From an uncultured Clostridium sp. (lineage in GTDB: Bacteria > Bacillota > Clostridia > Christensenellales > CAG-138): a stretch of 64,000 nt of DNA. The number at the start of each line of letters is the position of its first letter. Position 1 is the stretch's first letter. Where the stretch lies: NCBI GenBank assembly GCA_964487565.1, contig CAZARN010000001.1, positions 93,536 to 157,535 of the forward strand. The letters run 5' to 3'. The notes under the pieces are model-generated. The model saw only the letters and a program-made list of their open reading frames with translations, searched no databases and was not told the DNA's origin. Shown here in pieces: positions 14,388 to 27,645 of this stretch. The position numbers and the translations under genes were made by a program.

Positions 14388-15038
14388 ATGTTTTCTTTTT
14401 CAGACATCTTTACCATCACCCTCAGTCCGCTGCAGGTCGTGGCAACGCTCGTCATTGCCTTCCTCGTGGGTCTTTTCCTGTTCTTCATATATAAGAAGAC
14501 CTTCGGCGGCGTGATGTATTCGCGCAACTTCAACATCGGCCTTATAATGCTGACGATGGTATCATCCCTTATGCTGATGCTCATCCACAACAGCCTTGCG
14601 CTTTCCCTCGGCATGGTCGGCGCGCTTTCCATCATCCGCTTCCGCACGGCGATCAAAGACCCGATAGACACCGTTTTCATGTTCTGGGCCGTGGGCGAGG
14701 GCATCGCAGTGGGCGTCGCGTTTTATGACGTGGCGGTCATCGCGGCGCTTGTCATCGGCGTCATCATGGTGCTGCTGACGGTCTTCCGCGGCAAGGGCAG
14801 CCAGCCGTACCTTCTCATAATCCATTATGACGACGCGGCTTCGGGCCAGATAAAGCAGCTCGTGAAGCAGCTTCCCGGCGGCAGGCTCAAGAGCAAGACC
14901 GTCCAGCGCGACGGCATAGAGCTTACCATGGAGGTGCGCCTGAGGGATAACGAGACGGGCTTTGTTGAAAAATTTCTCCGCGTGGACGGCGTATTCGACG
15001 CGGCGCTCATCTCCCATCAGGGCGATATCGTGAGCTGA
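14388..15038 (+). CDS. DUF4956 domain membrane protein
   Basis: The product has four TM segments and an LSIIRFRTAIKDPID motif. The ATG at 14388 has a GAAGGAGG Shine-Dalgarno sequence upstream. The track ORF starts at 14337, inside the VTC gene. Confidence 0.6.
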   Translation: MFSFSDIFTITLSPLQVVATLVIAFLVGLFLFFIYKKTFGGVMYSRNFNIGLIMLTMVSSLMLMLIHNSLALSLGMVGALSIIRFRTAIKDPIDTVFMFWAVGEGIAVGVAFYDVAVIAALVIGVIMVLLTVFRGKGSQPYLLIIHYDDAASGQIKQLVKQLPGGRLKSKTVQRDGIELTMEVRLRDNETGFVEKFLRVDGVFDAALISHQGDIVS

Positions 15039-15145
15039 GGCGGACGCTGCTTCAACAGACGCGAATTTTGGATCAAGAGCAAGGCTGTTTTAACAAACGG
15101 CCTCGCTTTATGTATAGACAAGGTTAAAAGGAAGGGCCGGAGCAA

Positions 15146-16879
15146 ATGGAACTCATCCGAAAATTCATCTCCTATTACAAACCGCACAAAAAGCTGTTCA
15201 CGCTTGACATGGTGTGCGCGTTCATCGTGGCCGTGTGCGATCTGTTTTATCCCATGATCGCAAAGGACATAATCAACACCTATGTGCCAGGGCGGGATCT
15301 GCGCTCCCTCGTCATGTGGGCGGCGATACTGCTGGGGATCTATCTGCTCAAGGCCGGACTGAATTACGTCATTCAGTATTGGGGCCATATCGTCGGCGTG
15401 CGGATGCAGGCCGATATGCGCCACGACATGTTCCTGCATCTGCAAAAGCTGCCGTTCTCCTTTTATGATGAAAACAAGACCGGCACGATAATGAGCCGCA
15501 TGATAAACGACCTTCAGGATGTGAGCGAGCTTGCCCACCACGGCCCTGAGGATCTTTTCATATCGGGTATAACGCTCGTCGGCTCCTTCATAATGCTTGC
15601 AAGCATAAATTTGTATCTTGCGCTTATAGTGTTTGCAATATTGCCGTTCATGATATTCTTCGCGTGGAAGATGCGCCAGCAGATGAAGACCGCTTTCCGC
15701 CGCACGCGCGAGGAAGTGGCCGAGGTGAACGCCAATGTTGAAACCGCGATCGCCGGCATCCGCGTTTCCCGCTCGTATACGGCGGCGCCCCACGAGAACG
15801 AGAAGTTCGACGTTGCGAACGAACGCTATAAGAAAGCCCGCGCCTCCGCTTACCGCGCGATGGCGGCCTTCGGCTCAGGCATGGCTTTTTTCAACGATTT
15901 TCTGTATGTCATCGTGCTTGTGTCCGGCGGGTTGTTCTTCTTTTACGGAAAGATCGACAGCGGCAGCTTTGCCGCGTTCCTGCTTTATATCTCCATGTTC
16001 ATGAAACCCATCAACCGTCTCGTTTCCCTTTTTGAACAGCTCCAGAACGGCATGACGGGCTTTTCGCGCTTCAACGATATAATGAATGTGAACGACGAGG
16101 TGGATGAAGGCTCCCTTGAGGCGACAGAGCTTAAGGGCGACATCGCCTTTGACGACGTGAGCTTCCGTTACAGCAATTCAGACGCGGCGGACGCAGAGGA
16201 AAAGGTGATATCCCATCTCACGATGCGCATAGAACCCGGCCATACCGTGGCGCTCGTCGGCCCGTCGGGCGGCGGCAAAACCACGCTGTGCAACCTCATC
16301 CCTCGGTTTTATGAGGTGGACAGCGGCTCCATCTCCATCGACGGACACGATATACGCTCCCTCACGCGCTACTCCCTCAGGCGCAACATAGGCATCGTGC
16401 AGCAGGATGTTTTCCTCTTTAACGGTACGGTGCGCGAAAACATCGCTTACGGCGACCTTGAGGCGACGGACGAAGAGATAATCGAGGCCGCAAAGAAGGC
16501 CAACATCCATGATTACGTCATGACCCTCGAGGAAGGCTACGACACGAACGTGGGCGAGCGTGGCATCAAGCTTTCGGGCGGTCAGAAGCAGCGCATATCC
16601 ATCGCGCGCGTGTTCCTGAAAAACCCGTCGATACTCATCCTTGACGAGGCGACCTCCGCGCTTGACAACGCCACGGAAATGCTCATACAGCAATCCCTCT
16701 CAAAGCTTTCCGAGGGGCGGACATGCCTTGTCGTGGCGCACAGGCTTTCGACGATCAAAAACGCGGATGAGATAATCGTGCTCACGCGCGACGGCATAGC
16801 GGAGCGCGGCACGCATGAGGAGCTTATCGCAGGAAACGGCATTTACGCCGGGCTTTACAAGTATCAGTTCAGGGAATAA
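15146..16879 (+). CDS. ABC transporter ATP-binding/permease protein (exporter)
   Basis: The 577-aa product has a six-TM domain and a nucleotide-binding domain with GPSGGGKTT, LSGGQKQRISIARVFL and ILILDEATSALD. Confidence 0.85.
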   Translation: MELIRKFISYYKPHKKLFTLDMVCAFIVAVCDLFYPMIAKDIINTYVPGRDLRSLVMWAAILLGIYLLKAGLNYVIQYWGHIVGVRMQADMRHDMFLHLQKLPFSFYDENKTGTIMSRMINDLQDVSELAHHGPEDLFISGITLVGSFIMLASINLYLALIVFAILPFMIFFAWKMRQQMKTAFRRTREEVAEVNANVETAIAGIRVSRSYTAAPHENEKFDVANERYKKARASAYRAMAAFGSGMAFFNDFLYVIVLVSGGLFFFYGKIDSGSFAAFLLYISMFMKPINRLVSLFEQLQNGMTGFSRFNDIMNVNDEVDEGSLEATELKGDIAFDDVSFRYSNSDAADAEEKVISHLTMRIEPGHTVALVGPSGGGKTTLCNLIPRFYEVDSGSISIDGHDIRSLTRYSLRRNIGIVQQDVFLFNGTVRENIAYGDLEATDEEIIEAAKKANIHDYVMTLEEGYDTNVGERGIKLSGGQKQRISIARVFLKNPSILILDEATSALDNATEMLIQQSLSKLSEGRTCLVVAHRLSTIKNADEIIVLTRDGIAERGTHEELIAGNGIYAGLYKYQFRE

Positions 16880-17241
16880 CGGCCGTCCCCGCGCGCAAGG
16901 CAATGCGCCGTCCGGTCGGGAACGTCCCGTTGCAACTCCTCTGTGCCGCCTGCCGCGTAGATGGCGGTACGCTAGGTGAACGAAACGGTTTGAGAAAGGC
17001 TCCCTCATTGAGGGAGCCTTAAAAATGCAGCTCTAACGCGCAGGCAAGCGACGCGCGCAGGCCTGATATTCATATCACATGTTAAATATTGTTATTTTTC
17101 AATTTACACAATTGACACATATATATGCAAAAACGGTGGTATAATAGCGCATAAACGGCAGAAAACCATGCAATAACAGTTGAAGGGACAACATATAATT
17201 GTACCGATATACGAAAGCAATATGCTTCGAATCGATAAATG

Positions 17242-17459
17242 AAAAGCGCCCCCCTGAGGGAGGCGCTTTCTGTGCGTATATCGGGTTCCCCAACGGGGAG
17301 TTTGAATTACGCGCGAACCTTCTTGACGGTCACGACGGCGGCGGCGACGAGCGCGAGAGCGATCATCACGAAGCCAACCACGGTGGTGGCGTCACCGGTC
17401 TGCGGGGGCTCGACGGTGGGGTTGGTGACGGTGACATAACCGGCGGGGTACACGAGGGT
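17242..17459. repeat. Outer inverted repeat, left copy (3' end of gene A plus its terminator)
   Basis: This 218-bp segment is identical, apart from one silent GGT/GGC difference, to the reverse complement of 20759..20976. It encodes TLVYPAGYVTVTNPTVEPPQTGDATTVVGFVMIALALVAAAVVTVKKVRA. Confidence 0.85.
17245..17267. terminator. Terminator hairpin downstream of surface-protein gene A, forming part of the outer inverted repeat
   Basis: AGCGCCCCCCTGAGGGAGGCGCT is flanked by A and T tracts. It mirrors the terminator after gene B. Confidence 0.5.
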
Positions 17460-18431
17460 CTCAACGACCTCGTCGATGGTGCCAAAGTACTTCACGAAGT
17501 GAGCCTTGGTCATGGCGTTGCTGCCGTCATACTGGAAGCCAAGAAGCGCGAGGAAGTTATCGAACACGGCCTTGATGGCTTCGTACCTGCCGGTGGTGTC
17601 GCTGACGCCCCAGGCTTCAGTATCGTCGACACGGAAGATGTAGCCGCCGTTGGAAGCGGTGGAACGGGTGACATAATAAGTGCCGTCGCCTTTGCCGCCG
17701 TTGGCAACAGTCAGTTTGATCGCGCTGCCGGCGTCATCGTTCACATAGCCGTCCTTGACGGGGAACACAACAGTGTTCTTGCCATCGAAGATGGAGAAGG
17801 TGCCTTCGGTTGCGGCATCAACACCATTTGCGGTAACGGTGAAGGACTTGGTTCCCTTTGCGTTGTAAGCAACGAAGGTGTCCCCTTCCCACACATTGTA
17901 GTAACCGACGGACGCCTTGACGGTGGCATCCTTGCCGCCGGTGGTGCCCTGGCCTACAAACTCGAACTTGTACTCAAAGCCTTCGCTGGCAGTGTCGAGC
18001 GTGGTGCTCCAGGACTTGGCATCAACAACAACGTTCTTGGTGGTGCCGGCCTCGGAACCATCAGACAGCTTGGTGATATAGGTGGAGACCTTATCGATCT
18101 GGATGTAATCGGTCGAAACCTTTACCTTGAGGCCGCGGGCTGCGAGAAGCTTTACGTTGGCAGCGCTCAGATCGGCCTCGGCGGGGATGCTGACGACGAC
18201 CATGAAGTGCACGGGGGTGCCCTTCACGAGGGGATAGGTAGCGGTGAGCTCCTGATAGAGGCTGCCGAGGACGGCAGTGTTCTCTTTGGTCTCAAGGCCG
18301 TAGAGCTTGAAGGAAATAGCAGTAGCGGGGTCCTCATCAACCTTGATCGGATCCCAACCGGCTGCCATGGTGGGGATGGCGATGGCAAGCGCCATGGCCA
18401 GAGCCAGAACGAGTGCAAACAGTTTCTTCAT
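17307..18431 (-). CDS. Cell-wall-anchored surface protein, paralog A, with a signal peptide and a C-terminal (S/P)PXTG sorting signal (PPQTG)
   Basis: The 374-aa product has the signal peptide MKKLFALVLALAMALAIAIPTMAAGW. Its C-terminus is PPQTGD followed by a hydrophobic segment and a KKVRA tail. The mature region is about 50% identical to paralog B. The track ORF extends upstream to 18509 through an unlikely TTG/ATG extension. The ATG at 18431 matches the start of paralog B. Confidence 0.7.
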   Translation of the reverse strand: MKKLFALVLALAMALAIAIPTMAAGWDPIKVDEDPATAISFKLYGLETKENTAVLGSLYQELTATYPLVKGTPVHFMVVVSIPAEADLSAANVKLLAARGLKVKVSTDYIQIDKVSTYITKLSDGSEAGTTKNVVVDAKSWSTTLDTASEGFEYKFEFVGQGTTGGKDATVKASVGYYNVWEGDTFVAYNAKGTKSFTVTANGVDAATEGTFSIFDGKNTVVFPVKDGYVNDDAGSAIKLTVANGGKGDGTYYVTRSTASNGGYIFRVDDTEAWGVSDTTGRYEAIKAVFDNFLALLGFQYDGSNAMTKAHFVKYFGTIDEVVETLVYPAGYVTVTNPTVEPPQTGDATTVVGFVMIALALVAAAVVTVKKVRA

Positions 18432-18439
18432 CTCAGAAA
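18345..18439. repeat. Inner inverted repeat, left copy (5' end of gene A)
   Basis: This 95-bp segment is identical to the reverse complement of 19815..19909. It covers 8 nt of 5'UTR (TTTCTGAG), the ATG and codons 1–29 (signal peptide ... WDPI). Confidence 0.85.
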
Positions 18440-18543
18440 CCATGCTGCATAAGTATAAATTATATGCCGCCCTGAAAAGGACAGCATTTTTTGGTACGGG
18501 GGTTTGCATCGCGCTTGCTCACATGAAGCCGACAGTGCGGCGC

Positions 18544-19626
18544 TCATCCGCCGCCAGGCCCTGAACCGATATATGTGTTGAGGACTGCGGCCGCCTGCGC
18601 GCGTTTTGCTTCGGTCAGATGGGTGTATATCGCGAGCGTCATCTTCACATCCGCGTGCCTCATGAACGCCTGCGCGCTCTTTATGTCCACGCCCGCATCA
18701 TAAAGCATGGTGCAGTATGTGTGCCGCAGCATATGCGGCGTTATGCTGCCGATGCGCCCCGCGTCCGCGCTCTGACGGATGTGCTTCATCAGGCACGTCC
18801 ACGCGCACACGAACGCGCTGTATGTCATGAGCCCGCCGTCCGCGCCCGGGCATATCCATTCCGAGCGTGAACACGCCTTCTGCTGCGCAAGCGCGCCGAG
18901 AAGCACGGCCGGTATCGGCACGCGGCGCGAGCCCGCGCGGGTCTTGGGCGTTTTGAGCTCCGGCGTATTCTTTGCGAAGGAAACGGCGCGGCGCACGGCA
19001 AGCTCCGAAGCCTCGAAATCGATATCCTCCCACGAAAGCGCAAGCGTTTCGCCCCGGCGAAGTCCGCAGTAAAGCATCAGCATGGAGGCGAGCCACAGCC
19101 TTTGCCCCCGCGCGGCGGTGAACGCCTCCTGCTCATACGCAGAAAGCGCGCGGCGCGGCTCCCGCGCCGCGCCCGCCGCTTCCACGCGGGCGAAAGGATC
19201 GCCCGTCATGAGCCCCTCGTCATTCGCAAAGCCGATTATCTCCCTCACGACGGCCTTGATATCGCGCAGCGTCGTCGCCGCGTATCCCTCGCGCGAAAGC
19301 GCGCAGAGCATATCGCGCAGGTCGTTCGGACGGAGCGCGTCGAGCGCGGTCGAGCCAAGCGCGGGCAGGATGTGTCTGCCGATGAGGGAAGCGTATTTCT
19401 TTTTCGTGTTTGCGGCAAGCGCGGTCTCGCGCTGCGCGAACCATGCTTCCTCGGCCTGCGCGAAGGTCGGCCGCGGTTCCGTTTGGGCTGACGCCGGAGG
19501 GCGCAAACCGTCACATTCGGGGTATTTCCCGAGAAATATGTCGCGGGTTTTGCGCGCGCGGCGCACAAGGTCGAGCCGGCGGCGGTCTTTCCACGCCGCG
19601 TGGCGCGTTTTCAACATAAGCTCCAT
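18544..19626 (-). CDS. Tyrosine-type site-specific recombinase/integrase
   Basis: The 360-aa product has a C-terminal catalytic domain with R...HxxR...Y residues (HMLRHTYCTMLYDAGVDIKSAQAFMRHADVKMTLAIYTHL). It has a GGAAGGAG Shine-Dalgarno sequence. Confidence 0.85.
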   Translation of the reverse strand: MELMLKTRHAAWKDRRRLDLVRRARKTRDIFLGKYPECDGLRPPASAQTEPRPTFAQAEEAWFAQRETALAANTKKKYASLIGRHILPALGSTALDALRPNDLRDMLCALSREGYAATTLRDIKAVVREIIGFANDEGLMTGDPFARVEAAGAAREPRRALSAYEQEAFTAARGQRLWLASMLMLYCGLRRGETLALSWEDIDFEASELAVRRAVSFAKNTPELKTPKTRAGSRRVPIPAVLLGALAQQKACSRSEWICPGADGGLMTYSAFVCAWTCLMKHIRQSADAGRIGSITPHMLRHTYCTMLYDAGVDIKSAQAFMRHADVKMTLAIYTHLTEAKRAQAAAVLNTYIGSGPGGG

Positions 19627-19693
19627 TTATGGAACTCCTTCCTCAAAGCTAAAAGTGCTTCGAAATATTTATTAAGAATTCGTAATAAAAGCG

Positions 19694-19722
19694 TTGACAA
19701 CGGTAATATTAGATGATAATAT
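19694..19722 (+). promoter_or_regulatory. Sigma-A promoter inside the candidate invertible segment, currently oriented toward gene B
   Basis: TTGACA (19694..19699), a 17-nt spacer and TAATAT (19717..19722) are followed by a 5'UTR that contains a small hairpin at 19771..19787 and the AAAGGAG Shine-Dalgarno sequence at 19805..19811. Confidence 0.45.
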
Positions 19723-19814
19723 GATGTCGTGCAATACGGGATAGTACCCAACAGCGGCATTTATTGCCTGCCGGGGTAACGCCCCGGCGACACACACAAA
19801 TTTGAAAGGAGTTT

Positions 19815-19909
19815 TTTCTGAGATGAAGAAACTGTTTGCACTCGTTCTGGCTCTGGCCATGGCGCTTGCCATCGCCATCCCCACCATGGCAGCCGGTTGG
19901 GATCCGATC
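19815..19909. repeat. Inner inverted repeat, right copy (5' end of gene B)
   Basis: This is the reverse complement of 18345..18439 (95 bp, identical). The repeat begins 1 nt after the divergence point of the upstream sequence. Confidence 0.85.
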
Positions 19910-20911
19910 CTGCCGTCCACCACCCCCACTGAGGCCATCACCTTCAAACTTATGGGCCTTCAGACTGAAAAGAACACCGCAGTCCTCGGCGGCCTCTATG
20001 AAGAGCTTACCGCTACTTATCCCCTCGTAAAGGGTACTGCTGTTCACTTCGTGGTTTATGTAAATGTACCCGCCGAAGCGAAGCTCAGCGCCGCCAACAA
20101 GTCCCTTATCGCGAACAGGTATCTCAACCTTAACGTTGCCTGCGATAACATCACTCTTGACAGCGTTACCACCTGGACCAACGGCGTCGAAGGCGCAAAG
20201 GTCAACCTTGCCGGTGCGAAGAGCTTCACCACCGCTTGGGGTACCGGTTGCTACGGTCAGGAATACAAGCTTGAGTTCTGGGGCAGCGGCGTCACCGGCG
20301 GTAAGGATTCCACCGTCAAGGCTTCCCTCGGTTACTACAATGCCTGGGAAAGCACCACTTTCAAAGCTTACAACGCTGACGGCGATCTCGCCTTCACCGT
20401 TACCACCGATAATCTTGACAAGGCTGTTGCGACCTATTTTGAGATCAAGGATGCGGACGGCAACGTCATGAAATTCCCGGTTGCCAAGGGCGTTATCGAT
20501 ACCAGCAAGGTCATCACCCTCAAAGTTGGTTCTAATACCTATGACGTGACCAGGTCCACCGTTTCCGGTATTGCGTTCAAGCTTGCCGAGAAGGTTCTTG
20601 ACGAGAAGAGCACCGGCGACGATGCCAAGACCTATGCAGCGCTGAAGAAAGTCTTTGACAACTACTTCGCAATGCTGGGCTTCACCTATGACGGAGCCAA
20701 CGCCATGACCGCCGAGCACTTCACCAAGTACTTCGGCACCATCGACGAGGTCGTCAATACCCTCGTGTACCCCGCCGGCTATGTCACCGTCACCAACCCC
20801 ACCGTCGAGCCCCCGCAGACCGGTGACGCCACCACCGTGGTTGGCTTCGTGATGATCGCTCTCGCGCTCGTCGCCGCCGCCGTCGTGACCGTCAAGAAGG
20901 TTCGCGCGTAA
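19823..20911 (+). CDS. Cell-wall-anchored surface protein, paralog B, with the same signal peptide and PPQTG sorting signal as paralog A
   Basis: The 362-aa product has its ATG at 19823, preceded by an AAAGGAG Shine-Dalgarno sequence. Its N-terminal 29 aa and C-terminal 50 aa are identical to paralog A. The centre is divergent. Confidence 0.75.
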   Translation: MKKLFALVLALAMALAIAIPTMAAGWDPILPSTTPTEAITFKLMGLQTEKNTAVLGGLYEELTATYPLVKGTAVHFVVYVNVPAEAKLSAANKSLIANRYLNLNVACDNITLDSVTTWTNGVEGAKVNLAGAKSFTTAWGTGCYGQEYKLEFWGSGVTGGKDSTVKASLGYYNAWESTTFKAYNADGDLAFTVTTDNLDKAVATYFEIKDADGNVMKFPVAKGVIDTSKVITLKVGSNTYDVTRSTVSGIAFKLAEKVLDEKSTGDDAKTYAALKKVFDNYFAMLGFTYDGANAMTAEHFTKYFGTIDEVVNTLVYPAGYVTVTNPTVEPPQTGDATTVVGFVMIALALVAAAVVTVKKVRA

Positions 20912-20976
20912 TTCAAACTCCCCGTTGGGGAACCCGATATACGCACAGAAAGCGCCTCCCTCAGGGGGGCGCTTTT
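20759..20976. repeat. Outer inverted repeat, right copy (3' end of gene B plus its terminator)
   Basis: This is the reverse complement of 17242..17459. Confidence 0.85.
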
Positions 20977-20980
20977 TTTG
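20950..20980 (+). terminator. Rho-independent terminator after gene B
   Basis: The hairpin AGCGCCTCCCTCAGGGGGGCGCT is followed by TTTTTTT. Confidence 0.6.
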
Positions 20981-21124
20981 CATCCGCGGGAATATATGTA
21001 TTATATTGTATATTATTGAACAATGCCATGACGCATAAAGCGTGAAACGTTACCTATCGTTGCAAATTCCCGACCGATATTGCAACGCCTGAAATTGTAG
21101 ATTATATATAGCGGACCTGTTTTA

Positions 21125-21153
21125 TTGAACAGGGTGGCCTGGCGTGATAAAAT
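21125..21153 (+). promoter_or_regulatory. Sigma-A promoter candidate for iorAB-ptb
   Basis: TTGAAC, a 17-nt spacer and TAAAAT lie about 60 nt upstream of iorA. Confidence 0.35.
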
Positions 21154-21211
21154 CAAAATGAATTAAAGTAATCCGCCGGTCAATTCCGGCCATAGTGGAG
21201 GCGCATTTCTT

Positions 21212-23008
21212 ATGGAAAGAGAAATCATGAGCGGCAATGAAGCCGTGGCGCGCGGCGTGTATGAGGCGGGCTGCAATGTTGCGGCGGCTTATCCCGGCAC
21301 ACCGAGTACGGAGATACTCGAGAACATAGGAGAAAAATATAAGGACGATATATGGTGCACCTGGGCGTGCAACGAAAAAACCGCCGTGGAGATCGCGTCA
21401 GGCGCATCGATCGGCGGGGCGAGGGCGTTTGCCGCGATGAAGCATGTGGGCATGAACGTTGCCGCGGATCCCATATTCACAATGGGTTATATGGGCGTGA
21501 CGGGCGGGTTCGTGTTTGTTTCTGCGGATGATCCCGGGTGTCATTCCTCGCAGAATGAGCAGGATAACAGACTTTATGCGCCCCATGCGAAGATCGGCAT
21601 GATGGAGCCTTCCGATTCGCAGGAATGCAAGGATTTCACCAAGGCGGCGTTCGAGCTTTCGGAGCGTTTCGACACGCTGATGATGCTGCGCCTGACGACG
21701 CGCGTTTGCCACTCAAAGAGCATCGTCACCCTTGAGGAGCGTCAGCAGACGCCGGTCAGGAAGTATGTGCGCGACCCGAAAAAATTCGCCATGCTGCCCG
21801 CGCATTCCCGTCCGCGGCATATATATCGCGAGGAAATGCTGGCCAAAATGGAGGAGTATGCAAACGACTGTCCGTTTAACCGCGTGGAGAGCGCCTCGGG
21901 CGAAAGTGACATCGGCGTCGTGACCTCCGGCATATCGTATCAACACGCAAGGGAAGTTTTCGGCACAAGCGTGCACTATCTCAAGCTTGGCCTCACCTAT
22001 CCCCTGCCGCGCAAGCTCATTAAGGACTTTTGCAGCAAGCACAAGACCATATATGTTATAGAGGAAAACGACCCGTATCTTGAAAACGCCGTGCGCGAGG
22101 AAGGGTTCACAAACTGCATCGGCAAGGCGAGGCTCCCCATCTGCGGCGAGCTCAACGCCCAGATAATCCGCGATGCGTTTCTGCCGGGCACCGGCGCTGA
22201 AGGCTACGCCGCCTGCGGCGTTACGCCGCCGCCGCGTCCGCCGGTGCTTTGCGCAGGCTGCCCGCACAGGGGCTTCTTCTATTCGCTCGGCAAGTTCATC
22301 GGCAAGCCGAACGGCATCGTGCCCTGCGGCGATATAGGCTGCTATACGCTCGGCATCAACGCGCCGCTCAACGGGCTTGACACCACGATCTGCATGGGCA
22401 GCGGCATATCCTCGATAATCGGCATGGCGAAGGCGCTGGAGCTTCAGGGCGACGGCAGGAAGCCTCTCGGCTGCCTTGGGGATTCGACCTTCTTCCACAG
22501 CGGGCTTGTTTCCCTGATCGACGTCGTCAACAACGAGGCGAACGTGATCGCCTGCATTCTCGACAATTCCATAACCGCCATGACCGGTCATCAGGAAAAC
22601 CCCGGCACGGCGAAAAACCTCATGGGCAATCCTTCGCCCGTGATCGATATCGAGTCGCTGGTGCTTGCGACGGGCATTGCGCCTGAGCGCGTGCGCGTGG
22701 TCGATCCGATCGATGTCGCCGCGGTACAGTCCGCGGTGCAGGCCGGTCTTGATGTGAAGGGGCCGTTTGTGATAATCACCAAGCGTCCGTGCGTGCTTAT
22801 CAAGGAAGTCGCGCGCGCGAACGCCGGCAAGTATTGCAGGATCGATCCCGACAAATGCCGCGGCTGCAGGATGTGCATGAAGATATCGTGTCCTGCCATA
22901 GCGTTCAGCGAGGGAAAAGCGCGCATCATCGACCCGGCGTCCTGCACGGCATGCGGGCTGTGCATGGAAATGTGCAAATTCGGTGCGATCGAAAGGATCG
23001 GTGAGTGA
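21212..23008 (+). CDS. iorA: Indolepyruvate ferredoxin oxidoreductase subunit alpha (IorA)
   Basis: The 598-aa product has a TPP-dependent 2-oxoacid:ferredoxin oxidoreductase alpha domain and C-terminal 2x[4Fe-4S] motifs (CRGCRMCMKISCP...CTACGLCMEMCKFGAI). Confidence 0.85.
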   Translation: MEREIMSGNEAVARGVYEAGCNVAAAYPGTPSTEILENIGEKYKDDIWCTWACNEKTAVEIASGASIGGARAFAAMKHVGMNVAADPIFTMGYMGVTGGFVFVSADDPGCHSSQNEQDNRLYAPHAKIGMMEPSDSQECKDFTKAAFELSERFDTLMMLRLTTRVCHSKSIVTLEERQQTPVRKYVRDPKKFAMLPAHSRPRHIYREEMLAKMEEYANDCPFNRVESASGESDIGVVTSGISYQHAREVFGTSVHYLKLGLTYPLPRKLIKDFCSKHKTIYVIEENDPYLENAVREEGFTNCIGKARLPICGELNAQIIRDAFLPGTGAEGYAACGVTPPPRPPVLCAGCPHRGFFYSLGKFIGKPNGIVPCGDIGCYTLGINAPLNGLDTTICMGSGISSIIGMAKALELQGDGRKPLGCLGDSTFFHSGLVSLIDVVNNEANVIACILDNSITAMTGHQENPGTAKNLMGNPSPVIDIESLVLATGIAPERVRVVDPIDVAAVQSAVQAGLDVKGPFVIITKRPCVLIKEVARANAGKYCRIDPDKCRGCRMCMKISCPAIAFSEGKARIIDPASCTACGLCMEMCKFGAIERIGE

Positions 23009-26785: not shown

Positions 26786-27511
26786 TCAATCAACCGTTTC
26801 TGTTTCTTCGGGCGCGCTTTCCGTGACTTCCGGATCCTCTTGCGGTTCGGGTTCTTCAACAGGATCGTCCCAGGTTACGGTTATGGTTATGGTATAGCTG
26901 TTGCCGTCGGCGTCCTTTATCACGCGCTGCTGGGAGAGCTTGTTAACGTTGCTGCCTTCCGCGCTGACAGGGACAGCCACGCAGGAGAAGACCAGCGTTG
27001 CCGCGATGAGGAGCATCAGCAGCCTTTCTGCGCTGCGCACGCCGAAGCGGCGGGCAAAGAGGATCGCCAGCGCGGCGCACGCGATCAGCGCAACGCCGAC
27101 GATGAGCCATATGTTGGATGAGCCTGTGGCGGGCGGCGTGGCGACTTCGCCGACGAACAAAAGTGTGATGCTGCTTTCAGCGTCAAAACCGGCCTTGATA
27201 TTGCCGAGAGCCTGCACATATTTGCCGTCGGAAACTTTCGTTACGGAGTTGAAGGCGTCGGGCATTGAAGCGAGCGCGAACTGCTTGGGCGCTTCGAGCG
27301 TCACGCGCACGTTATCCGCGCCGCCCTTGTACAAAACGGCGTTGAGGGAGGTAGTTATCTTGGTATAATCGCCAACAGATACCGGGTTCTTGCTGATGTC
27401 AATACCGGCGATCTCAAGCGCGTCGCTGCTCGCGGCAAGACCGACCGCGGCGGCGCCGACGGTGAGAAGCAGGATGAGCGCCAACAATGAAACAAGCAAA
27501 CGTTTTCTCAT
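26786..27511 (-). CDS. Hypothetical secreted protein with an internal (S/P)PXTG-like sorting signal (PPATG + TM + RRFGVR), followed by a second signal-peptide-like segment and an acidic tail
   Basis: The ATG at 27511 has a GGGGGA Shine-Dalgarno sequence. The product starts with the signal peptide MRKRLLVSLLALILLLTVGAAAVGLAA. It contains PPATGSSNIWLIVGVALIACAALAILFARRFGV, then RLLMLLIAATLVFSCVAVPVSAEG..., and ends DDPVEEPEPQEDPEVTESAPEETETVD. Confidence 0.5.
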   Translation of the reverse strand: MRKRLLVSLLALILLLTVGAAAVGLAASSDALEIAGIDISKNPVSVGDYTKITTSLNAVLYKGGADNVRVTLEAPKQFALASMPDAFNSVTKVSDGKYVQALGNIKAGFDAESSITLLFVGEVATPPATGSSNIWLIVGVALIACAALAILFARRFGVRSAERLLMLLIAATLVFSCVAVPVSAEGSNVNKLSQQRVIKDADGNSYTITITVTWDDPVEEPEPQEDPEVTESAPEETETVD

Positions 27512-27645
27512 ATTTATCCCCCAAGATGTAAAATTTATAAATCGCACCCGCGCGCTTCCGGAAATCACGCGAATGTATTTACAATGCTATTATAGTGACT
27601 GGCGAAAGACATTGCAAGCCGGGAGACGCGCATAGGTCAAAATAA

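Follow-up and report, generated by a model that had tools for sequence, protein, structure and literature searches.

The locus and its nested inverted repeats

At positions 17242-20976 of a 64-kb stretch of DNA from an uncultured Clostridium sp., referred to below as the window, two paralogous genes for putative cell-wall-anchored surface proteins lie on opposite strands, with a gene for a tyrosine recombinase between them. Gene A (17307..18431, minus strand) encodes a protein of 374 amino acids (aa) with a signal peptide and a C-terminal PPQTG motif, and constitutes a cassette that has neither a promoter nor a Shine-Dalgarno (SD) sequence. Its paralog, gene B (19823..20911, plus strand), encodes 362 aa and is presently linked to a promoter. 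The recombinase gene (18544..19626, minus strand) encodes a protein of 360 aa, which is a proposed invertase. This locus of ~3.7 kb had been put forward by a model that saw the sequence and its open reading frames (ORFs) only (the original prediction) as a candidate DNA-inversion switch. The positions it gave for genes and repeats were borne out by the recomputed coordinates, as were the identities over 95 and 218 nucleotides (nt) at the gene ends.

Two pairs of inverted repeats are nested at the locus. The inner pair (18345-18439 and 19815-19909) is 95 nt long and contains no mismatches. It begins 8 nt ahead of each start codon (TTTCTGAG/ATG) and stops past codon 29; the left copy comprises 8 nt of 5' untranslated region (UTR) and codons 1-29 of gene A, and the right copy the equivalent part of gene B. 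The outer pair (17242-17585 and 20633-20976) measures 344 nt with 90% identity, and its two arms hold the 3' ends of gene A and gene B, respectively, each with the stop codon and a terminator-like hairpin (17249-17262 on the minus strand after gene A; 20955-20969 on the plus strand after gene B). In the distal 218 nt of this pair (17242-17459 and 20759-20976), which take in the stop codon and the hairpin, only position 17439/20779 is mismatched. By chance, exact inverted matches in 64 kb would be expected to reach no more than ~16 nt, a 26-mer of the repeat found no match across 100 shuffles, and no further long inverted repeats were found in the window. The inner repeats are the bounds of the proposed invertible segment (18440..19814; 1375 nt), which carries the recombinase gene and the sole promoter, 5'UTR, and SD sequence of the locus.

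At its inner edge, the inner repeat contains 25 nt (TTCTGAGATGAAGAAACTGTTTGCA) that are invariant across all loci compared. Within them, a dyad, GTTTCT-GAGATGA-AGAAAC, spans the ATG at the repeat edge (18422..18440, minus strand) and might speculatively be a core-type site. As the chance expectation for a dyad of this 6+7+6 format in 95 nt is roughly 7%, it is a lead to a possible core site only.

Two surface-protein paralogs with homogenized ends

The proteins encoded by genes A and B are 60% identical overall, and identity in their bodies varies from 27 to 80% per 30-codon bin. The proportion of synonymous differences (pS) between the genes, also calculated in 30-codon bins, lies at 0.43-0.71 in the body, even for bins whose protein sequences are 80% identical, and at 0.00-0.04 in the first 30 and the last 45 codons. 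The synonymous divergence of the bodies is near saturation, and it is zero in the repeats. Because pS drops to about zero at the ends and the identity extends at both ends into non-coding DNA, the ends have been homogenized at the DNA level rather than being constrained as protein. The same difference, i.e., a pS of 0 in the repeats vs. ~0.6 in the body, is incompatible with a simple recent duplication of whole genes. Gene A is an intact ORF in the window and on three other contigs (L006, L089, and L090; L-numbers denote compared contigs and P-numbers compared proteins), i.e., in at least four strains.

Both proteins consist of a signal peptide (MKKLFALVLALAMALAIAIPTMA/AG), a body that is mostly beta-sandwich, and a C terminus composed of PPQTG, 24 mostly hydrophobic residues (DATTVVGFVMIALALVAAAVVTV), and KKVRA. 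With the LPXTG model TIGR01167, they score 15.2-15.3 against a cutoff of 15.9, i.e., 0.6 bits short, and with NF033846 15.9-16.0 against 23.5. One member of the family has been annotated as an LPXTG anchor protein by NCBI. A sortase motif of the TLxTC type is absent from every ORF of at least 120 aa in the window. The AlphaFold2 (AF2) model of the gene B product has a predicted local distance difference test (pLDDT) score of 83.8 and is mostly beta-sandwich. A fold search with the surface protein returned only weak matches to beta-sandwich and Gram-positive pilin-like proteins, with template modeling (TM) scores of at most 0.26, and no function is, therefore, assigned to it.

The surface-protein family comprises more than 200 clusters without a Pfam domain, and all of it retains the signal peptide and anchor at the protein level. 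In other contexts, its members are found either singly, between pnp and obg, or in a tandem pair next to iorAB, and neither setting includes a recombinase. A tandem pair is found in a related species (L093:6614-9086; ~78% nt identity in iorA), where two family copies lie on the same strand beside iorAB, each with its own promoter and SD sequence. No recombinase is present on this contig, which ends just past the second gene.

One set of expression signals for two genes

The only strong promoter at the locus is of the sigma-70 type (19694..19722, plus strand), with TTGACA and TAATAT hexamers separated by 17 nt, a match of 10 out of 12 positions, and a TG. It is followed by a 5'UTR of ~90 nt (19723..19814), which contains a GC hairpin at ~19770-19789 and the SD sequence AAAGGAG at 19805-19811. 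The right inner repeat starts at 19815, 3 nt past the SD sequence. The promoter, 5'UTR, and SD sequence are thus all located inside the segment 18440-19814 and are now directed at gene B. The segment is bracketed by the perfect 95-nt repeats, as in invertons, where inverted repeats lie around a promoter.

The region upstream of gene A is different. It ends in GCAGCATGGTTTCTGAG/ATG and contains no GGAG. Ahead of the gene lie, in this order, the 3' end of the recombinase gene, a weak terminator-like hairpin (18464-18487), a stretch ending in GCAGCATGG, and the repeat. On the minus strand at 18459-18464, directly adjoining this hairpin (together 18459..18487), a lone TATAAT is found, a perfect hexamer without a -35 element at 27 nt upstream of the gene A start codon; it is the only promoter-like element there. 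The combination of a single promoter and a conserved 5' region common to both paralogs corresponds to that of the vpma/vsp/vsa-type loci of Mycoplasma, and from its sequence, gene A would be silent.

Other members of the family have kept their signals. The promoter at 19694-19722 is homologous to those upstream of the family members on L092, L093, and L097, and the genes on L092 and L097 as well as both genes on L093 each have their own TTGACA-type promoter, a homologous 5'UTR, and an AAAGGAG SD sequence. Among the family members examined, only gene A is without promoter, 5'UTR, and SD sequence. Since the others keep theirs, gene A has lost the upstream module of the family, exactly up to the edge of the repeat.

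The leader of ~90 nt, with a CCGGGG-loop-CCCCGG hairpin and AAAGGAG, is conserved across organisms (window 19723-19814; L092:126-326; L097:5800-6000). A search of the 5'UTR against Rfam gave no match. It may be an mRNA-stabilizing leader of a highly expressed surface-protein gene.

The tyrosine recombinase

The recombinase scores 85.9 bits with the Phage_integrase model PF00589 (cutoff 27.1), and the core-binding models PF22022, PF14659, and PF02899 are also above cutoff. The catalytic residues R190, K228, H298, R301, H324, and Y334 are invariant in an alignment with nine relatives. The gene is intact in at least four alleles, and the ratio of non-synonymous to synonymous divergence (dN/dS) between alleles is 0.21-0.31 (about 0.28), from which it follows that the protein is under purifying selection.

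Its best relative of solved structure in the PDB is the integrase (Int) of Tn1549 (E = 3.5e-17), and among phage and plasmid proteins, the best matches share 33 and 31% identity with it, respectively. A relative with 36% identity (P0011) is encoded in a mobile element, directly behind excisionase-type HTH_17 genes and an S24 repressor. At the N terminus, relatives carry an arm-binding-type motif, KKRxDGxY...GKxxRK, whereas the clade of the window has a different, shorter N terminus; the AF2 model of residues 1-50 consists of helix and disorder without a beta-domain, at low confidence (pLDDT 31-66). The possibility, named along with the original prediction, of a conventional integrase of a phage or an integrative and conjugative element (ICE), with an att site and mobile-element genes nearby, was followed up, and neither att repeats nor such genes were found: no excisionase or other mobile-element genes are present among the neighbors of the locus, and direct repeats resembling att sites in 15000-23000 are only short and at chance level. 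The protein appears to be an integrase by descent, not by context, which has shed its mobile-element accessories and become fixed in its place between the repeats. This apparent loss of the integrase accessories suggests a locus-specific job.

Related loci and allele exchange

The contigs L004, L005, L006, and L089 carry close alleles of the recombinase, at 92, 89, and 74% protein identity. The layout of these loci is alike, with one surface-protein gene divergent from the recombinase gene and one co-directional with it, and the boundaries of the inner repeat are kept in all four. The recombinase on L005 is 89% identical to that of the window, and the cassettes on this contig are different ones, ~50% identical to both A and B. 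The two repeat copies on this contig differ from each other at three of the 95 nt and have 16 changes relative to the window repeat in common. They have the same start (TTTCTGAG) and the same end (GGGATCCGATC), beyond which 25 of 73 nt differ. On this sequence comparison, the L005 repeats represent concerted evolution with conserved boundaries.

The scan for more distant loci covered GTDB representative genomes, a set that does not include the source genome. In 80 distant recombinase relatives from GTDB genomes, neither inverted repeats at the flanks nor surface-protein neighbors were seen; hence, only a small clade has the architecture, which receives no comparative support from the recombinase family at large. 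Within the surface-protein family, a recombinase gene lies between the repeats in every locus with an inverted pair and in no locus with a single gene or a tandem pair.

Two alleles are mosaics of the paralogs. P0084 (L091:40-1146), located at the B position, contains a 60-nt block that is 100% identical to gene A (alignment columns 121-180). Gene A of L089 (L089:2366-3502) has a 3' block that is 100% identical to B, which shifts the boundary of the outer repeat. These mosaics indicate that the inverted copies exchange sequence, either by reciprocal crossovers, i.e., inversions, or by gene conversion.

A proposed promoter flip and its alternatives

On balance, and by a modest measure, the locus is probably a two-state switch, in which the recombinase flips a promoter and thereby alternates two surface proteins. 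The elements on which this reading builds are established: the anatomy of the locus, the single set of expression signals, the homogenization of the repeats, the recurrence of the architecture in relatives, an intact recombinase under selection, and the absence of mobile-element features. From these, we infer that inversion occurs, that the recombinase encoded at 18544..19626 catalyzes it, and where the crossover takes place; because all informative assemblies show a single orientation and predicted flipped products are absent from the data, inversion has this status rather than that of an observation.

In the proposed mechanism, the recombinase would pair the two inner repeats and exchange strands inside them, probably in the vicinity of the invariant 25-nt stretch around the ATG, and this exchange would flip the segment 18440-19814. 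In the present orientation, the promoter and SD sequence would drive gene B, while gene A, SD-less and behind the recombinase gene and a hairpin, would be silent. After a flip, the same promoter and SD sequence would be joined to gene A at identical spacing, and gene B would be left silent behind the recombinase gene; in this respect, the arrangement is symmetric. The cell would show one of two surface proteins with a common signal peptide and wall anchor and a different exposed body. The native junctions read GAAAGGAGTTT-repeat-CTGCCGTCCACC on the promoter side and GCAGCATGG-repeat-AAGGTTGATGAG on the recombinase side; the predicted flipped junctions are GAAAGGAGTTT-repeat-AAGGTTGATGAG, on the GGAGTTT side, and GCAGCATGG-repeat-CTGCCGTCCACC. 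Inversion at the outer repeats would be functionally silent, although it may promote mosaicism of the cassettes. Therefore, the nested inverted repeats pointed out in the original prediction do exist, but the outer pair contributes nothing to the switch itself.

Several observations weigh against the proposed flip. The first concerns orientation. Seven of seven informative assemblies (the window, L004, L006, L089, L090, L091, and L095) have the same one, i.e., the promoter is joined to the gene on the iorA side, the recombinase end to the gene on the side of the ABC exporter gene, or both. Also, 10 predicted products of the flipped state are absent from a collection of ~15 billion proteins. 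Exact look-ups of the recombinase, its close alleles, and the surface proteins did not reveal the flipped state either, nor did an inspection of cluster members for their N-terminal extension. This extension, as set by gene callers, reports on orientation: proteins of the A type carry MVSE- or MQTPVPKN- at their start, and those of the B type start at MKKLF, which fits the native orientation. A scan with an orientation-independent 25-mer gave one match in JGI metagenome contigs, in the native orientation, and no match in IMG/VR. The survey, made up of assemblies and a protein collection, is of low sensitivity, and several of the contigs have ~1-2x coverage and are akin to single draws; with just seven draws, the flipped fraction is bounded only below ~35%. 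The suggestion that related genomes might hold the locus in the alternative orientation was thus not borne out in the seven informative assemblies. The original prediction of an inversion switch holds up for the anatomy, to which one set of signals inside the repeats, homogenized ends, and a selected recombinase can be added, but actual inversion did not find direct support, as the flipped state was found in neither the seven informative assemblies nor the protein collection.

Further points on the same side concern the recombinase and the signals. The protein belongs to the phage/ICE integrase branch, with Tn1549 Int as its nearest solved relative and a phage match of 33%. The comparison with characterized invertases that had been proposed turned out negative: the FimB and FimE models (NF007371 and NF007370) score 29.4 and 23.9, far below their cutoffs of 222 and 221. 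Some basal transcription of gene A could arise from the lone TATAAT and from read-through of the recombinase gene. At 95 and 218 nt, the repeats are of sufficient length for recombination through RecA. Finally, the recombinase ORF is unexpectedly hyperdivergent between near-identical strains. In a comparison of the window (18600-19700) with L089, L006, L004, and L090, the synonymous divergence (dS) of the recombinase gene is 0.70 vs. 0.018 for the adjacent ABC gene of the same pair of strains, a ~40-fold difference. The ORF is 62-80% identical per 100-nt bin where the flanks are 99-100% identical, and the promoter, both repeats, and both intergenic regions are 100% identical between these strains. 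L004 and L090 carry a mosaic recombinase allele with a breakpoint near 19000.

Two observations on contig ends and joins touch upon orientation. The short-read contigs L001, L002, L007, and L008 (Logan, ENA) break exactly at the edges of the segment and the repeats. These breaks were considered as evidence of inversion and rejected, since a 95-nt repeat breaks assembly graphs of k = 31-77 whether the segment is flipped or not. In JGI sample 3300010352, promoter and repeat are joined to a B-type body (L110:1-130) and to the P0084 body beside iorA (L091:1-140); these two joins could represent two strains or two orientations of one strain.

The single orientation of all informative assemblies and the absence of flipped products also argue for a static locus, in which gene B is the sole expression site and gene A a promoter-less donor that acts by non-reciprocal gene conversion, following the logic of pilE/pilS. 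The terminal blocks would then be conversion tracts or anchors, and the recombinase would be irrelevant or have another role. The mosaics, i.e., the 60-nt A block in P0084 and the B block at the 3' end of L089 gene A, fit conversion, and gene A evolves faster than its neighbors (dS of 0.061 vs. 0.018). However, it would then be unexplained why an intact, selected recombinase gene lies between the repeats in every inverted-pair locus and only there, and why the repeat edge falls 3 nt past the SD sequence, where a flip would recreate a perfect fusion. We regard a static locus as unlikely.

Alternatively, the segment may invert by RecA-dependent homologous recombination across the repeats of 95 or 218-344 nt, as in the sap locus of Campylobacter fetus, with the recombinase as a passenger. 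The repeats, near-perfect to perfect, are far above the ~30 bp needed by a tyrosine recombinase, and concerted evolution over the full 95 nt and mosaic alleles are typical of homologous exchange. A passenger is, however, difficult to reconcile with a recombinase gene that co-occurs with the inverted architecture, is under purifying selection, and has lost its integrase accessories, and the probability of this explanation is considered low.

The divergence of the recombinase alleles could be accommodated by a broader proposal, to which we likewise attach little weight. Beyond an ON/OFF toggle, the locus would be a compact machine for antigen diversification, with the cassettes repeatedly reshuffled into mosaics through inversion or conversion at the 5' repeat, at internal conserved patches, and at the 3' repeat, and the recombinase would be kept as at least two deeply diverged, recombining alleles (dS of ~0.7 against ~0.02) by balancing or frequency-dependent selection, for example, through pressure of phages or the host on switching.

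Very improbable is the explanation that an integrative element landed between inverted paralogs and decayed, leaving the recombinase behind, with the repeats as conserved ends of a recent inverted duplication: although its nearest relatives outside the clade are mobile-element integrases and the signal peptide and anchor are conserved as protein across the whole family, the locus lacks other element genes, Xis, and att repeats, four or more alleles have an intact ORF with a dN/dS of ~0.28, and gene A is without the promoter, UTR, and SD sequence of the family exactly up to the repeat edge.

Comparison with known switches

If the segment flips as proposed, the closest systems in logic would appear to be the single-promoter vpma/vsp/vsa systems of Mycoplasma and C. 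fetus sap, and the closest in packaging the Hin system of Salmonella. The locus does not belong to the FimB/E family and is neither a shufflon nor a RecV-type 5'UTR switch. In shufflons of the Rci type, several segments invert at numerous short sfx-like sites and thereby exchange the C-terminal ends of a single gene; the present locus has just two nested repeat pairs, and the proposed exchange is at the 5' end.

In C. fetus sap, an invertible promoter segment lies between two opposed paralogs with conserved 5' ends, either one of which can be driven. Inversion is largely RecA-dependent, the conserved 5' regions measure ~600 bp, the segment is ~6 kb, and further silent homologs are present; the products are S-layer proteins secreted by a type-I system. 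We know of no dedicated recombinase in this system. The present locus shares with sap the promoter-bearing segment between opposed paralogs and differs from it by the resident recombinase gene. The invertible H-segment of Salmonella, of ~1 kb, which underlies flagellar phase variation, carries both the recombinase gene, hin, and a promoter, and in the present locus, the recombinase gene and promoter would similarly ride on the invertible segment. Hin is a serine recombinase, which acts on 26-bp hix sites with a Fis-bound enhancer; the promoter drives one side only, and alternation is achieved via a repressor. In Lactobacillus acidophilus, two opposed S-layer paralogs with identical 5' regions, slpA and slpB, are swapped by inversion of a ~6-kb segment, so that one is expressed and the other silent from a promoter that is fixed outside the segment. 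To our knowledge, no resident recombinase has been identified there. The opposed surface-protein paralogs with identical 5' regions are common to both loci, but in the present one, the promoter is inside the segment.

The vpma locus of M. agalactiae, vsp of M. bovis, and vsa of M. pulmonis each have a single promoter and silent paralogs with a conserved 5'UTR and signal-peptide region, and encode a tyrosine recombinase (Xer1, Mbr, and HvsR, respectively), with site-specific inversions bringing alternative genes behind the promoter (PMC2268961). The likeness to the present locus is one of layout and logic; inversion is proven there and proposed here. These systems contain at least six lipoprotein genes, with proposed sites at -1 to -72 of the 5'UTR and a recombinase gene that lies beside the flipped DNA. 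The present locus, in contrast, has two sortase-type anchored proteins, a repeat that spans the start codon and signal peptide, and a recombinase gene on the invertible segment.

Two other systems are similar in some respects. The C. difficile cwpV/RecV switch likewise involves a tyrosine recombinase of the Clostridia, a cell-wall protein, and inversion at inverted repeats (PMC2784873). The cwpV switch differs in being a short ON/OFF element in the 5'UTR that acts via a terminator, the recombinase, RecV, acts on many switches from a gene at another location, and there are no paired alternative genes. In the ivr (SpnD39III) hsdS locus of Streptococcus pneumoniae, a tyrosine recombinase gene (PsrA/CreX) lies among inverted paralogous copies with several nested inverted repeat pairs (PMC4948785). 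There, internal target-recognition domains of a restriction-specificity gene are swapped behind a fixed 5' end, whereas in the present locus, the proposed flip would move the promoter of surface-protein genes.

If correct, the proposed flip would constitute a minimal single-promoter switch between alternative genes in uncultured Clostridia, made up of two cassettes, one promoter, and one recombinase in ~3.7 kb, with a logic known mainly from Mycoplasma and Campylobacter. It would also show that an integrase of the Tn916/Tn1549-like branch has been domesticated into an invertase, and it would mark the surface protein, from a widespread and uncharacterized family, as a target of strong diversifying pressure from phages or the host. 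Even if the segment never flips, the locus would be a useful example of an architecture with a silent cassette and gene conversion.

Neighboring genes and further observations

The neighbors of the locus are housekeeping genes. It is flanked on one side by genes for an ABC exporter and for DUF4956, VTC, and CotH proteins and on the other side by genes for IorA, IorB, and a PTA (phosphotransbutyrylase). The original prediction had taken its AT-rich borders as a sign of an acquired islet. This idea was rejected: the flanking stretches, with a GC content of 0.44-0.47, are ordinary intergenic DNA, and a related species carries family genes beside iorAB. As the family occurs elsewhere as a single gene or as a tandem pair beside iorAB, the locus is ancestral rather than acquired.

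Two observations concern other putative surface proteins. P0189 is a distant single-copy member of the family (L096-L105), and many of its contigs end 270-1160 nt upstream of the gene, a tentative sign that a repeat or a variable region lies at that place. In the window itself, an ORF of 260 aa (26786-27568, minus strand) contains a PPATG motif in the middle of the protein, followed by a hydrophobic span and RRFG, with ~90 residues beyond. It could be another protein of the (S/P)PXTG type with a mis-set boundary, or a fusion.

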